Source of the DNA: a virus
Taxonomy: Duplodnaviria > Heunggongvirae > Uroviricota > Caudoviricetes
DNA: 14,788 nucleotides
Virus record (IMG/VR): IMGVR_UViG_2554235189_000004
Span: 1 to 14,788 of that record
Strand: one strand, 5' to 3'
The stretch's first letter is position 1; each line of letters starts with the position of its first letter. A model generated the notes under the pieces. That model was not told the DNA's origin. It searched no databases and saw only the letters and a program-made list of their open reading frames with translations. Position numbers and translations under genes: made by a program. Positions 1-14,788 of the stretch are shown here, piece after piece.

Positions 1-58
1 ATGATCTGGCAGCCTGAGTTCACAGATAAAACACTCTCCAGGAAAACCGGGGCGGTTC
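1..58 (+). mobile_element. Right end of an IS3-family (IS629-like) insertion sequence whose body lies upstream of the window
   Basis: 46-58 'ccggggcggttca' is the exact reverse complement of 14478-14490 'tgaaccgccccgg'; the match extends imperfectly to about 25 bp ('tcctggaga' shared). Stop codons in all three frames lie within or just past this segment, so the O frame cannot extend upstream. Confidence 0.7.
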
Positions 59-631
59 AGTTCCCCTAAAATGAGGGACATCCCTCAAAACGAGGGAAAA
101 TCCCCTAAAACGAGGGATAAAACATCCCTCAAATTAGGGGATTGCTATCCCTCAAAACAGGGGGACACAAAAGACACTATTACAAAAGAAAAAAGAAAAG
201 ATTATTCGTCAGAGAATTCTGGCGAATCCTCTGACCAGCCAGAAAACGATCTTTCTGTGGTTAAACCGGATGCTGCAATTCAGAGCGGCAGCAAGTGGGG
301 AACAGCAGAAGACCTGACCGCCGCAGAGTGGATGTTTGACATGGTGAAGACCATCGCACCATCAGCCAGAAAACCGAATTTTGCAGGGTGGGCTAACGAT
401 ATCCGCCTGATGCGTGAACGTGACGGACGTAACCACCGCGACATGTGCGTGCTGTTCCGCTGGGCATGCCAGGACAACTTCTGGTCCGGTAACGTGCTAA
501 GTCCGGCCAAACTCCGCGACAAGTGGACCCAACTCGAAATCAACCGTAACAAGCAACAGGCTGGCGTGACAGCTGGAAAACCAAAACTCGACCTGACAAA
601 CACTGACTGGATTTACGGGGTGGATTTATGA
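59..631 (+). pseudogene. O: Replication initiation protein O, C-terminal (P-interacting) part only; N-terminal iteron-binding domain separated by the IS end
   Basis: The ORF from ATG 71 to 631 translates to ...IPQNEGKSPKTRDKTSLKLGDCYPSKQGDTKDT...WTQLEINRNKQQAGVTAGKPKLDLTNTDWIYGVDL, matching my recollection of the lambda O C-terminal half. There is an in-frame stop at 2-4 and no start codon between 5 and 71. Confidence 0.8.
62..200. repeat. ori: Lambda-type replication origin: five iteron-like 18-19 bp repeats (62-78, 80-97, 100-117, 124-141, 147-165) followed by an A-rich tract (166-200)
   Basis: Repeats 'atccctcaaaacgaggga', 'atcccctaaaacgaggga', 'atccctcaaattagggga', 'atccctcaaaacaggggga' plus a degenerate upstream copy 'tcccctaaaatgaggga'; the lambda origin lies inside the O gene with this organisation. 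Confidence 0.8.
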
Positions 632-1329
632 AAAACATCGCCGCACAGATGGTTAACTTTGACCGTGAGCAGATGCGTCGGATCGCCAACAACATGCCGG
701 AACAGTACGACGAAAAGCCGCAGGTACAACAGGTAGCGCAGATCATCAACGGTGTGTTCAGCCAGTTACTGGCAACTTTCCCGGCGAGTCTGGCTAACCG
801 GGACCAGAACGAACTGAATGAAATCCGCCGCCAGTGGGTTCTGGCTTTCCGGGAAAACGGGATCACCTCGATGGAACAGGTTAACGCAGGAATGCGCGTA
901 GCCCGTCGGCAGAATCGACCATTTCTTCCATCACCCGGGCAGTTTGTTGCATGGTGCCGGGAAGAAGCATCCGTTATCGCCGGACTGCCAAACGTCAGCG
1001 AGCTGGTTGATATGGTTTACGAGTATTGCCGGAAGCGTGGCCTGTATCCGGATGCAGAGTCTTATCCGTGGAAATCAAACGCGCACTACTGGCTGGTTAC
1101 CAACCTGTACCAGAACATGCGGGCCAATGCGCTGACTGACGCGGAATTACGGCGCAAGGCTGCCGATGAACTGACCTGTATGACAGCACGAATTAACCGT
1201 GGTGAGACGATACCTGAACCAGTAAAACAACTTCCTGTCATGGGCGGCAGACCTCTAAATCGAGCACAGGCTCTGGCGAAGATCGCAGAAATTAAAGCTA
1301 AGTTCGGACTGAAAGGAGCAAGTGTATGA
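628..1329 (+). CDS. P: Replication protein P (DnaB helicase loader)
   Basis: 233 aa, MKNIAAQMVNFDREQMRRIANNMPEQYDEKPQVQQVAQIINGVFSQ...; near-identical to lambda P as I recall it; ATGA start/stop overlap with O. Confidence 0.93.
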   Translation: MKNIAAQMVNFDREQMRRIANNMPEQYDEKPQVQQVAQIINGVFSQLLATFPASLANRDQNELNEIRRQWVLAFRENGITSMEQVNAGMRVARRQNRPFLPSPGQFVAWCREEASVIAGLPNVSELVDMVYEYCRKRGLYPDAESYPWKSNAHYWLVTNLYQNMRANALTDAELRRKAADELTCMTARINRGETIPEPVKQLPVMGGRPLNRAQALAKIAEIKAKFGLKGASV

Positions 1330-1616
1330 CGGGCAAAGAGGCAATTATTCATTACCTCGGGACGCATAAGAACTTCTGTGCACAGGACGTTTCCGCGGTA
1401 ACAGGCGCAACCGTAACCAGCATAAATCAGGCTGCGGCTAAAATGGCGCGGGCAGGAATCCTGGTCATTGATGGTAAGGTCTGGCGAACGGTGTATTACC
1501 GGTTTGCTACCAGGGAAGAACGGGAAGGAAAGGTGAGCACGAACCTGATTTTTAAGGAGTGTCGCCAGAGTGCAGCGATGAAACGGGTATTGGCGGTATA
1601 TGGAGTTAAAAGATGA
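1326..1616 (+). CDS. ren: Ren protein (Rex exclusion resistance)
   Basis: 96 aa, MTGKEAIIHYLGTHKNFCAQDVSAVTGATVTSINQAAAKMARAG...; lambda Ren length and position directly after P, with overlapping start. Confidence 0.85.
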   Translation: MTGKEAIIHYLGTHKNFCAQDVSAVTGATVTSINQAAAKMARAGILVIDGKVWRTVYYRFATREEREGKVSTNLIFKECRQSAAMKRVLAVYGVKR

Positions 1617-1641
1617 CCATCTACATCACTGAGCTAATAAC

Positions 1642-1673
1642 AGGCCTGCTGGTAATCGCAGGCCTTTTTATTT
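1642..1673 (+). terminator. Rho-independent terminator (tR2-like) after ren
   Basis: Perfect 8-bp stem 'aggcctgc'/'gcaggcct' (1642-1649 / 1658-1665) with an 8-nt loop, followed by 'tttttattt'. Confidence 0.7.
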
Positions 1674-1686
1674 GGGGGAGAGGGAA

Positions 1687-12987: not shown

Positions 12988-13112
12988 GATGTGTTGATAA
13001 CCTACAGAGGAAAACTACCGGGAATAATTACTGGTTCTCTGAAGACTCCACCGCTGGCCTGAAGACTTAACATATCCAGGGATTTGAAATCGATAAATCC
13101 TGATAAATATCC

Positions 13113-13646
13113 ATGAACGCAAAAATCAGATACGGCCTGTCGGCTGCCGTTCTGGCGCTGATTGCCGCAGGTGCGCCTGCGCCTGAAATCCTCGACCAGT
13201 TTCTGGATGAAAAGGAAGGTAACCACACCACGGCATACCGTGATGGCGCGGGTATCTGGACCATCTGCCGCGGTGCCATCCTGGTGGATGGTAAACCTGT
13301 CGTTCCGGGCATGAAGTTGTCGAAGGAAAAATGCGACCGGGTTAACGCCATTGAGCGTGATAAGGCGCTGGCATGGGTGGCGAAAAACATCAGAGTGCCA
13401 CTGACCGAACCCCAGAAAGCGGGGATTGCGTCATTCTGTCCGTACAACATTGGCCCCGGTAAGTGTTTCCCGTCGACGTTTTACAGACGGATTAATGCTG
13501 GTGACCGCAGGGGAGCATGCGAGGCGATTCGCTGGTGGATTAAGGACGGTGGCAGAGACTGCCGTATTCGCTCAAATAACTGTTATGGTCAGGTATCCCG
13601 TCGTGACCAGGAGAGCGCTCTGGCGTGCTGGGGAATCGACAGATAA
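13113..13646 (+). CDS. R: SAR-type endolysin (T4-lysozyme-like muramidase with N-terminal signal-anchor-release domain)
   Basis: 177 aa; N-terminal weakly hydrophobic Gly/Ala-rich segment YGLSAAVLALIAAGAPAP followed by the E…D…T catalytic pattern (…DEKEGNHTTAYRDGAGIWTICRG…). Confidence 0.85.
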   Translation: MNAKIRYGLSAAVLALIAAGAPAPEILDQFLDEKEGNHTTAYRDGAGIWTICRGAILVDGKPVVPGMKLSKEKCDRVNAIERDKALAWVAKNIRVPLTEPQKAGIASFCPYNIGPGKCFPSTFYRRINAGDRRGACEAIRWWIKDGGRDCRIRSNNCYGQVSRRDQESALACWGIDR

Positions 13647-13755
13647 GCAGAATATTTTGCTGAAAAATGACGTTGGCCAGCGCGGGCGGATAACACGAAA
13701 TCCTGCGAACTGGCAAAATGTAAGTGAATAAAGTTAGGCAGATTATTTCACGCAG

Positions 13756-13785
13756 AGGCACCGTAATGGTGCCTTTGTCATTTCT
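13756..13785 (+). terminator. Candidate terminator hairpin downstream of the endolysin
   Basis: Stem 'aggcacc'/'ggtgcct' with loop 'gtaat', followed by T-rich 'ttgtcatttc'. Confidence 0.35.
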
Positions 13786-13919
13786 GCGCTTCGCACAAGC
13801 GTAAATAAACCAAAGAACCTTTCAGGATGAGCCCTGGTGGATAACCGGCAGTGGTCTGGTTAACCCTCTTTGGGCTGGTTATTCCTGTGCGCAGGGTTCA
13901 TCACTAAAAGGAATCAACC

Positions 13920-14480
13920 ATGAAAGAGATGATTTCTATCGATCATGAAATATCCATGAGTAGTCTGGATTTTCTGAATAACATTATTAATCCAGCCCGG
14001 GCAGAAGCCGGAGAAGTCCCTCATGAACCGCGTAAGTTTCTTGCAAAAATTGAGGATGAGCTAGAGCTTGATGGAACCGGAAAAAAATTCCGGTTAAACA
14101 ATAACCAGACAAGAACGGCATACTATGATCTGGATTTTGACCAGATGATGCTCGTTGGCATGAGGGAGTCAAAGGCCGTTCGTCGTTCTGTGCTGGCAAG
14201 ACTCAAAGCGATGCATGGTATTCAGATCCCCCGGACTTTACCTGAGGCGTTGCGATTTGCGGCAAAACTGGCTGAACAGAAAGCAGTGCTGGAAAATCAA
14301 CTGGCAATAGCAGCGCCGAAGGCTGAATTTGTTGATAAATATGTTGAAGCATCTGGTCTGATGGGATTCCGGGAAGTTGCTAAGTTACTCGGTATCAAAG
14401 AAACCGATTTCCGGCTGTTTTTGTTGGAGAACGGAATAATGTATCGCCTCGCTGGAAAAATGACGCCTTACTCGCATTGA
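13920..14480 (+). CDS. ant: Phage antirepressor-like protein (Ant/KilA-C type), C-terminus probably truncated by the IS insertion
   Basis: 186 aa; RBS 'aaagga'; …RLNNNQTRTAYYDLDFDQMMLVGMRESKAVRRSVLARLKAMHG… resembles antirepressor C-terminal domains; the TGA stop at 14478-14480 is the first three bases of the IS terminal repeat. Confidence 0.6.
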   Translation: MKEMISIDHEISMSSLDFLNNIINPARAEAGEVPHEPRKFLAKIEDELELDGTGKKFRLNNNQTRTAYYDLDFDQMMLVGMRESKAVRRSVLARLKAMHGIQIPRTLPEALRFAAKLAEQKAVLENQLAIAAPKAEFVDKYVEASGLMGFREVAKLLGIKETDFRLFLLENGIMYRLAGKMTPYSH

Positions 14481-14788
14481 ACCGCCCCGGAAATCCTGGA
14501 GACTAAACTCCCTGAGAAAGAGGTAAACAGGATGACTAAAAATACTCGTTTTTCCCCCGAAGTCCGTCAGCGGGCGATTCGTATGGTTCTGGAAAGTCAG
14601 GATGAATATGACTCACAGTGGGCGGCAATTTGTTCCATTGCCCCAAAGATTGGCTGTACGCCGGAGACTCTGCGTGTCTGGGTTCGCCAGCATGAGCGGG
14701 ATACCGGGAGTGGTGATGGTGGACTCACCACCGCTGAACGTCAGCGTCTGAAAGAGCTGGAACGTGAAAATCGTGAACTGCGCCGCAG
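14478..14788 (+). mobile_element. Left end of an IS3-family (IS629/IS1203-like) element; continues past the window end
   Basis: Terminal repeat 'tgaaccgccccggaaatcctggagactaaactccc' beginning with 5'-TG; followed by the orfA start. Confidence 0.85.
14533..14788 (+). CDS. IS3-family transposase OrfA (HTH domain), partial at the window edge
   Basis: RBS 'aaagagg' then ATG 14533; [85 protein letters not shown] matches IS629-type OrfA as I recall it. Confidence 0.85.

Follow-up and report, generated by a model that had tools for sequence, protein, structure and literature searches.

The DNA analysed here (hereafter the window, 14,788 nucleotides (nt) in full; IMG/VR record IMGVR_UViG_2554235189_000004) carries the replication-to-lysis portion of an stx-negative lambdoid prophage, bracketed by two ends of insertion sequences (IS) of the IS629/IS1203 type. 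Both prophage-IS junctions lie exactly at IS termini, one within the replication gene O and its origin (ori) and the other within the antirepressor gene ant, and O, ori and ant are physically disrupted. We consider it likely that this arrangement arose through two separate IS629/IS1203-type insertions, in the same orientation, into a resident prophage.

The window is the entire contig ASXQ01000037.1 of draft assembly GCA_000414155.2, from the porcine atypical enteropathogenic Escherichia coli (aEPEC) strain IMT8073. This draft genome (ASXQ00000000; sequence type ST794, Ont:H7, stx-negative) dates from 2013; its 454 and 46-bp Illumina reads were put together with Newbler and CLC, giving 180 contigs (PMC3731852). 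Because the assembler broke the contig within each repeated IS, only 59 bp of IS are visible at one end and 311 bp at the other; and because the assembly ends inside repeats, complete IS copies, target-site duplications and colinear outer flanks cannot be read from the contig and, since they would lie beyond its ends, are inferred.

IS629/IS1203-type ends at the contig borders

The two ends carry the following features:

1..59, + strand: right (3') end of an IS629/IS1203-type element of the IS3 family, IS positions 1252-1310; its right inverted repeat ends ...CCGGGGCGGTTCA at base 59
1-17, + strand: putative last orfB codons and stop (TGA at 15-17), placed by register with annotated elements
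14478..14788, + strand: left (5') end of an IS629/IS1203-type element, IS positions 1-311; its left inverted repeat begins TGAACCGCCCCGG
14532 to the contig end, + strand: orfA, which runs off the contig and encodes the N-terminal 85 residues of OrfA

Structurally, the borders are marked by the 13-mer TGAACCGCCCCGG, which occurs exactly twice in the window, at 47-59 (- strand) and at 14478-14490 (+ strand). The termini of the IS thus read TGAACCGCCCCGG...CCGGGGCGGTTCA (TG...CA), with the characteristic terminal inverted repeats, and the left and right repeats (IRL and IRR) of the visible ends align across ~25 bp. Both IS pieces are in + orientation with 14,418 bp between them, which agrees with the original prediction, made from the sequence alone, of two directly oriented IS629-like ends about 14.4 kb apart. 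The left end starts at 14478, as had been proposed; the right end had been recognised as such and closed at 58, one base short of the border at base 59.

Compared with annotated elements, the left piece (14478-14788) agrees at all 311 bp (100% identity) with the beginning of a 1310-bp IS3-family element in E. coli O103 strain WL1467, and is 98.7% identical to an element in strain 124 that RefSeq names 'IS3-like element IS1203 family'. The right piece matches the last 59 bp of the WL1467 and strain 124 elements at 58 of 59 positions, and IS3-family copies with exactly these 59 bp (100% identity) occur in >1,000 E. coli records. Over the 370 of 1310 bp that are visible in total, and for these only, nucleotide identity to a named element is at the level of an isoform (at least 95%). 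The OrfA N-terminus matches Pfam HTH_Tnp_1 (E 4.6e-12) and, weakly, NCBIfam transpos_IS3, with the site of the -1 programmed frameshift into orfB and the DDE core lying beyond the contig. We base the naming of the element on the RefSeq annotation of the matching copies and on PMC3271280; the label 'IS629-like' is accurate, because IS1203 and IS3411 are isoforms of IS629 (PMC3271280). An A at position 46 was considered as a 454 homopolymer error and rejected, the exact 59-mer being common among finished genomes.

The original prediction had named one finding that would overturn it, namely flanking sequence in which 1-58 is not part of an IS, for example an isolated short repeat with no transposase genes upstream. 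The right piece holds the final five codons of orfB and the stop, and is therefore IS-internal sequence that extends beyond a bare inverted repeat, with IS matches of 58/59 to 100%. A related concern is that the IS ends are an assembly artefact, repeat reads having been joined chimerically to the ends of a prophage contig in which O and ant carry no insertion. The window is indeed a draft contig of a 2013 454/Illumina CLC assembly, and both IS pieces sit at contig ends, where misjoins are most frequent; but both joins fall at the exact terminal nucleotides (TG...CA), with the prophage stopping at that base, which random chimeras would not achieve twice, and the same IS type is inserted in O in finished genomes. 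We therefore regard an artefact as scarcely credible.

Evolutionarily, the two ends may derive from different IS629 subtypes that are ~95% alike. One full element that carries the exact right-end 59-mer is a copy in the iuc locus of O145 strain RM9872, whose left end is only ~95.5% identical to the window left end (~4.5% different); for the IS copy in O, there are just 59 bp from which to judge the subtype. The window left end is itself a mosaic, IS1203-type over positions 1-210 and RM9872-type at diagnostic positions 232-254, a pattern that points to exchange between coexisting IS629 subtypes, by recombination or gene conversion. It recurs unchanged in O103 strain WL1467, and subtypes differing by 4-5% are known to coexist within one genome (PMC3271280).

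Interruption of O, the origin and ant

The prophage DNA between the IS ends, 60-14477, aligns in one piece at 99.7-99.8% identity with uninterrupted prophages in the complete genomes of FORC_042, HCP5S3_I4, 2013C-4991 and others (31 differences over 14.4 kb relative to FORC_042), and these served as references for the two interrupted loci:

60..631, + strand: 3' portion of replication gene O (nt 368-939 of 939; codons about 123-312), covering the linker and C-terminal domain
71-631, + strand: mechanical open reading frame (ORF), the in-frame O remnant from an internal ATG
60..62: GTT, putative right copy of a 3-bp target-site duplication flanking the IS in O; the left copy would lie beyond the contig
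61..164: iterons 2-6 of a six-iteron lambdoid origin (61-78, 80-97, 100-117, 124-141 and 147-164)
about 165-215: AT-rich region of the origin, after iteron 6
13920..14477, + strand: 5' part of antirepressor gene ant, codons 1-186 of 231
14475..14477: CAT, putative left copy of a 3-bp target-site duplication flanking the IS in ant; the right copy would lie beyond the contig

Window base 60 corresponds to nt 368 of the 939 nt of O. In the reference O of 312 amino acids (aa), the Pfam domain Phage_rep_O covers residues 22-115, which places the DNA-binding N-terminal domain wholly upstream of the break. The reference origin has six 18-bp iterons, of which iteron 1 lies 2 bp upstream of the break. 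The left IS occupies the 2-bp spacer that separates iteron 1 from iteron 2 and divides the array 1 + 5: iteron 1 stays with the O N-terminal fragment beyond the IS, and iterons 2-6 and the AT-rich region stay with the C-terminal fragment. The IS splits both the origin and the O reading frame. It had been proposed earlier that the IS parts the O N-terminal domain from the origin and the O C-terminal domain; the break after the N-terminal domain is borne out, whereas the origin is not left whole on one side, the IS lying inside it between iterons 1 and 2. In place of an intact O/P/ori replication module, the window thus holds O nt 368-939 and iterons 2-6, together with an intact P. The GTT at the junction is a candidate duplication because IS629 makes duplications of 3-4 bp (PMC3271280) and because a separate IS1203 copy in O, that of strain 124, is flanked by GTT on either side. 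We also considered that the transposase might read through into the C-terminal part of O, and rejected this, as the orfB stop at 15-17 is in another frame and the O frame meets a stop at 2-4.

The composition of the origin also bears on a rival in which one IS copy alone connects the two ends of the block, forming a ~15.7-kb circle or a tandem amplification that short-read assembly collapsed. Such a circle or array would give a contig that opens with the right end of a repeat and closes with its left end, similarly oriented, just as two copies would. A block without an intact O and with five of six iterons would, however, be unable to replicate as a lambda-dv-like plasmid, and IS3-family elements circularise themselves and do not form translocatable units in the manner of IS26. 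Moreover, full copies of the right-end subtype differ from the visible left end, which argues for two copies, though a single mosaic copy could still combine the two. We judge a single IS to be very improbable.

Other sequences were also found to break at or near this part of O. In the Logan assembly L014 (2627-3561), the same O allele is split into ORFs of 125 aa and 186 aa with no IS, and its iteron 1/2 spacer reads GGGAAGTTCCCC vs GGGAGGTTCCCC in the reference; since O is split there without an IS, small inactivating changes occur in the iteron region as well. Among unrelated E. coli with differing immunity regions, many draft contigs end at O nt 368-370, the iteron 1/2 boundary. Taking these contig ends as the same insertion elsewhere was rejected as unsafe: repeat-induced assembly breaks explain them equally well, because neighbouring partial lengths (115, 122, 124 and 129 aa) occur too and the prophage backbones differ.

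At the other junction, the stop codon of the truncated ant (TGA at 14478-14480) is formed by the first three bases of the IS. The break after codon 186 of 231 cuts the KilAC domain (Pfam ANT, PF03374), such that the window protein covers profile positions 1-63 of 108, against 1-106 in the intact reference, and the complete KilAC domain of a phage antirepressor is lacking. The second IS had accordingly been read correctly as cutting ant. Downstream of ant, the reference prophages have a 43-aa ORF and next Rz (PF03245, E 4.7e-50), in which is embedded a 61-aa ORF that resembles Rz1, with a lipoprotein-like signal and a proline-rich body; the guess that Rz/Rz1 follows ant was thus right for the intact prophage.

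Simple insertion weighed against rearrangement

Mechanistically, one IS629-family element (IS3 family, copy-out-paste-in) would have entered the iteron 1/2 spacer of ori within O and another would have entered ant after codon 186, and each visible end would then belong to a separate full-length copy with the missing half of the prophage beyond it. On the left, simple insertion predicts an O 5' part ending ...GAGGGAGGTT, on a contig whose end would read ...CAAAACGAGGGAGGTT followed by TGAACCGCC...; on the right, it predicts an ant 3' part starting CAT-CACCTGGATG..., on a contig whose start would read ...GGCGGTTCA followed by (G)CAT CACCTGGATGCGG..., and then the 43-aa ORF and Rz/Rz1. Functionally, such a prophage, with O broken and its origin split, would no longer be able to start its own replication, and there may be polar effects on the pR-driven expression of P, the nin genes and Q. 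The 14.4-kb block could also be deleted between the two copies, in a RecA-dependent or transposase/IEE-associated manner.

Deletions of this kind have precedents, as the original prediction suggested in stating that the IS repeats can drive deletion, in two IS-bounded deletions at O. In the complete genome of MMC-J-0105, the xis region is connected to a truncated O through an IS of this type. In the bloodstream isolate 2020N21-246 (NZ_CM125675.1 1639906-1644432), the O 5' part breaks off at the start of iteron 1, where an IS1203-type element links it to a truncated regulator gene that adjoins the gene for the small terminase subunit, and the whole replication-to-lysis region of the prophage is missing. 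The same two genomes lend weight to a rival explanation of the window, which accepts the junctions as real but attributes at least one IS to a rearrangement (adjacent deletion, inversion or IS-IS recombination) instead of a simple insertion. The outer flanks would then not carry the rest of O and ant, and the block may stand apart from the remaining prophage or be its sole remnant.

We looked for the junctions and their missing mates in several collections. Neither inner junction (O right, ant left) was found as a single-piece match in 5,426 complete E. coli genomes, in which the same IS occurred nearby at other sites only. By exact pattern, the O right junction had no match in JGI metagenome contigs or GTDB representative genomes, and the ant left junction had none in GTDB representative genomes. 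A synthetic mate junction, made of the O 5' part and the IS left end, had no exact match in complete genomes or JGI metagenome contigs, and it was the complete-genome search with this query that led to the deletion in 2020N21-246. No IS-block-IS unit in another genomic context, as a composite transposon would give, was thus seen among these genomes, metagenome contigs and GTDB representatives.

At the protein level, a collection of 15 billion proteins was queried by exact look-up. It does hold the truncated Ant of the window contig (13920-14480), which a protein-to-contig index places on one record only, ASXQ01000037.1. Products of O N-terminal fragments fused to IS sequence with 0- and 1-bp duplications were absent as exact sequences, as were fusion ORFs of IS with the ant C-terminal part, which are possible only with a 1- or 4-bp duplication. 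N-terminal O forms of 123 and 124 aa are present in the collection, on other assemblies and mostly as partial proteins at contig ends, and no contig returned by these junction-protein look-ups belonged to GCA_000414155.2.

Several points weigh against two simple insertions. The far sides of both IS copies lie outside the window; the copies in O and ant are perhaps not near-identical repeats, given that carriers of the 59-mer are ~4.5% off the visible left end; and the fusion products of the O N-terminal part and IS predicted for 3- and 4-bp duplications (132 and 139 aa) are absent by exact look-up from the 15-billion-protein collection. This last absence is weak evidence, in that a single residue difference from the reference or a contig break before the stop would also yield it. 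Rearranged IS629 flanks are, furthermore, common: duplications of IS629 are 3-4 bp long, and matching ones were seen at only 21 of 47 sites in O157 genomes (PMC3271280). The duplication record and the missing fusion proteins both speak for a rearrangement, as do the two IS-bounded deletions; on the other side, the DNA between the breaks forms a single colinear block that starts and finishes with the halves of O and ant to be expected from one prophage, the missing proteins are weak evidence, and the window itself gives no sign of rearrangement. On balance, we hold a rearrangement to be unlikely, albeit deserving of serious consideration, and two separate insertions to be the best explanation.

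The extent to which two such insertions could delete the block by homologous recombination would depend on the likeness of the two copies. Divergence of 4-5% strongly lowers RecA-dependent homologous recombination between copies. From a practical perspective, genome scans should allow for IS fragments at both ends of a window merely signalling a whole draft contig broken at repeats, in which case the 'bracketing' pattern is uninformative on the outer flanks.

The prophage block and comparison with other IS629-type events

Between the two IS ends, the block follows the gene order of the FORC_042 prophage. That order begins with cIII ... cI-like repressor, cro, cII, O, P and ren; continues through the nin region, a 590-aa reverse-strand ORF, HNH, ninG, phosphatase, Q, tRNA, TerB and SASA esterase; and ends with holin, ydfR, lysozyme, ant, the 43-aa ORF, a 'lysis protein' and the terminase genes. 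The corresponding features of the window are:

628..1329, + strand: replication gene P, intact (PF06992, Phage_lambda_P)
1326-1616, + strand: ren, intact, after P
1672..13646, + strand: rest of the colinear block, including the nin region with lar, ninB, dam and ninE, then HNH, ninG and phosphatase
4171-5943, - strand: 590-aa orphan ORF between ninE and the HNH/ninG genes
8327-8815: Q
9129-9204: tRNA downstream of Q, called by ARAGORN as tRNA-Met with anticodon CAT
10364-12214: SASA esterase, after TerB
12507-12713: holin
13113-13646: lysozyme

RefSeq calls the equivalent tRNA of FORC_042 tRNA-Ile, presumably since its anticodon is lysidine-modified. The stx genes, which in Stx phages would be expected just downstream of the tRNA, are absent from the window. 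The 590-aa ORF lies in a stretch low in G+C (about 34% vs about 50% around it), has no match in Pfam, NCBIfam or PADLOC, and matches only PHROGs of unknown function (phrog_9230, full length); it is kept in the reference prophages as a 'hypothetical protein' and looks like a moron-type cargo gene. Two further genes are shortened relative to FORC_042. In lar (2324-2494; Lar-family restriction alleviation), an extra G at 2457 reduces the product from 78 to 56 aa, which could be a real pseudogene or a 454 homopolymer error. In the ydfR-like/DUF1327 gene beside holin (12718-12987), a C-to-T change at 12985 makes a stop, giving 89 vs 114 aa; this nonsense codon is an added sign of prophage decay.

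Taken as a whole, the window shows how one stx-negative aEPEC lambdoid prophage was probably immobilised, through a split O/origin, a truncated ant, a frameshifted lar and a nonsense codon in the ydfR-like gene, and it marks a 14.4-kb segment that recombination between the IS copies could remove. The element, the class of target (lambdoid prophage genes, including O) and IS-driven prophage decay and deletion are all already known; the new facts are only the two strain-specific insertion coordinates, and the finding, an ordinary and well-documented type of prophage decay, matters little beyond IMT8073.

IS629-type insertions in O have several counterparts. In strain 124, IS1203 is inserted in O at ~nt 243, in the orientation of O and with a clear GTT/GTT duplication, and O157:H7 strain F6294 has the same IS type at a similar position; the draft or metagenome contigs L015 and L016 carry IS629 in O in the opposite orientation. 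Closest to the window is the metagenome scaffold L012, in which ...CAAAACGAGGGAGGT is joined directly to TGAACCGCCCCGGGAATCC, an IS629 left end abutting the same iteron 1/2 spacer. The IS variant of L012 differs from that of the window (GGGAATCC vs GGAAATCC), and the register of its junction implies a 2-bp duplication or a site moved by 1-2 bp, so that it is probably an independent event and not the mate of the window junction. These insertions resemble the one in the window in IS type and gene, most of them also in sharing the orientation of O, and they differ in position, with elsewhere O nt about 243, about 278 and about 351, as against 367/368 in the window.

One could posit from these cases that O, and the spacers of its iteron array in particular, is a preferred target of IS629-type elements, perhaps favoured since disabled replication leaves the prophage 'grounded'. 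Among the sequences fetched, IS629-type elements do occur at at least five positions within O nt 240-370, mostly in the orientation of O, and in the iteron 1/2 spacer two apparently independent insertions are no more than 1-2 bp apart. By a rough estimate, made without a formal test, a handful of the ~2,500 genomes with this O allele carry an IS within a few hundred bp, a count that is about what the general bias of IS629 towards prophages would give; 62% of IS629 copies in O157 genomes lie within prophages (PMC3271280). We find such a preference for O rather doubtful.

With respect to deletion, IS629 moves by copy-out-paste-in and undergoes IEE-stimulated excision and deletion (bioRxiv 10.1101/2023.06.07.543989), and IS-mediated deletions by IS629 have been reported in O157 (PMC3271280). 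The window differs from these and from MMC-J-0105 and 2020N21-246 in that the block, gone there, is still present here, and no deleted or circular form of it was observed.

With respect to the element, the window resembles IS629/IS1203/IS3411 of enterohaemorrhagic E. coli O157:H7, other E. coli and Shigella in its termini, in the HTH_Tnp_1 domain of orfA and in its location in a lambdoid prophage, and it differs in the mosaic of its left end and in insertion sites unseen in the 5,426 complete E. coli genomes. The composite transposon Tn3411 is flanked by IS3411 copies and offers a likeness for the bracketed segment as a whole, as both are bounded by copies of IS629 isoforms. Unlike Tn3411, the window block gives no evidence of having moved as a unit, and its inner edges are gene halves of one resident prophage. 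Because these edges are halves of genes of one prophage, and because the junctions were unseen elsewhere, two separate insertions fit the window better than a Tn3411-type unit does.

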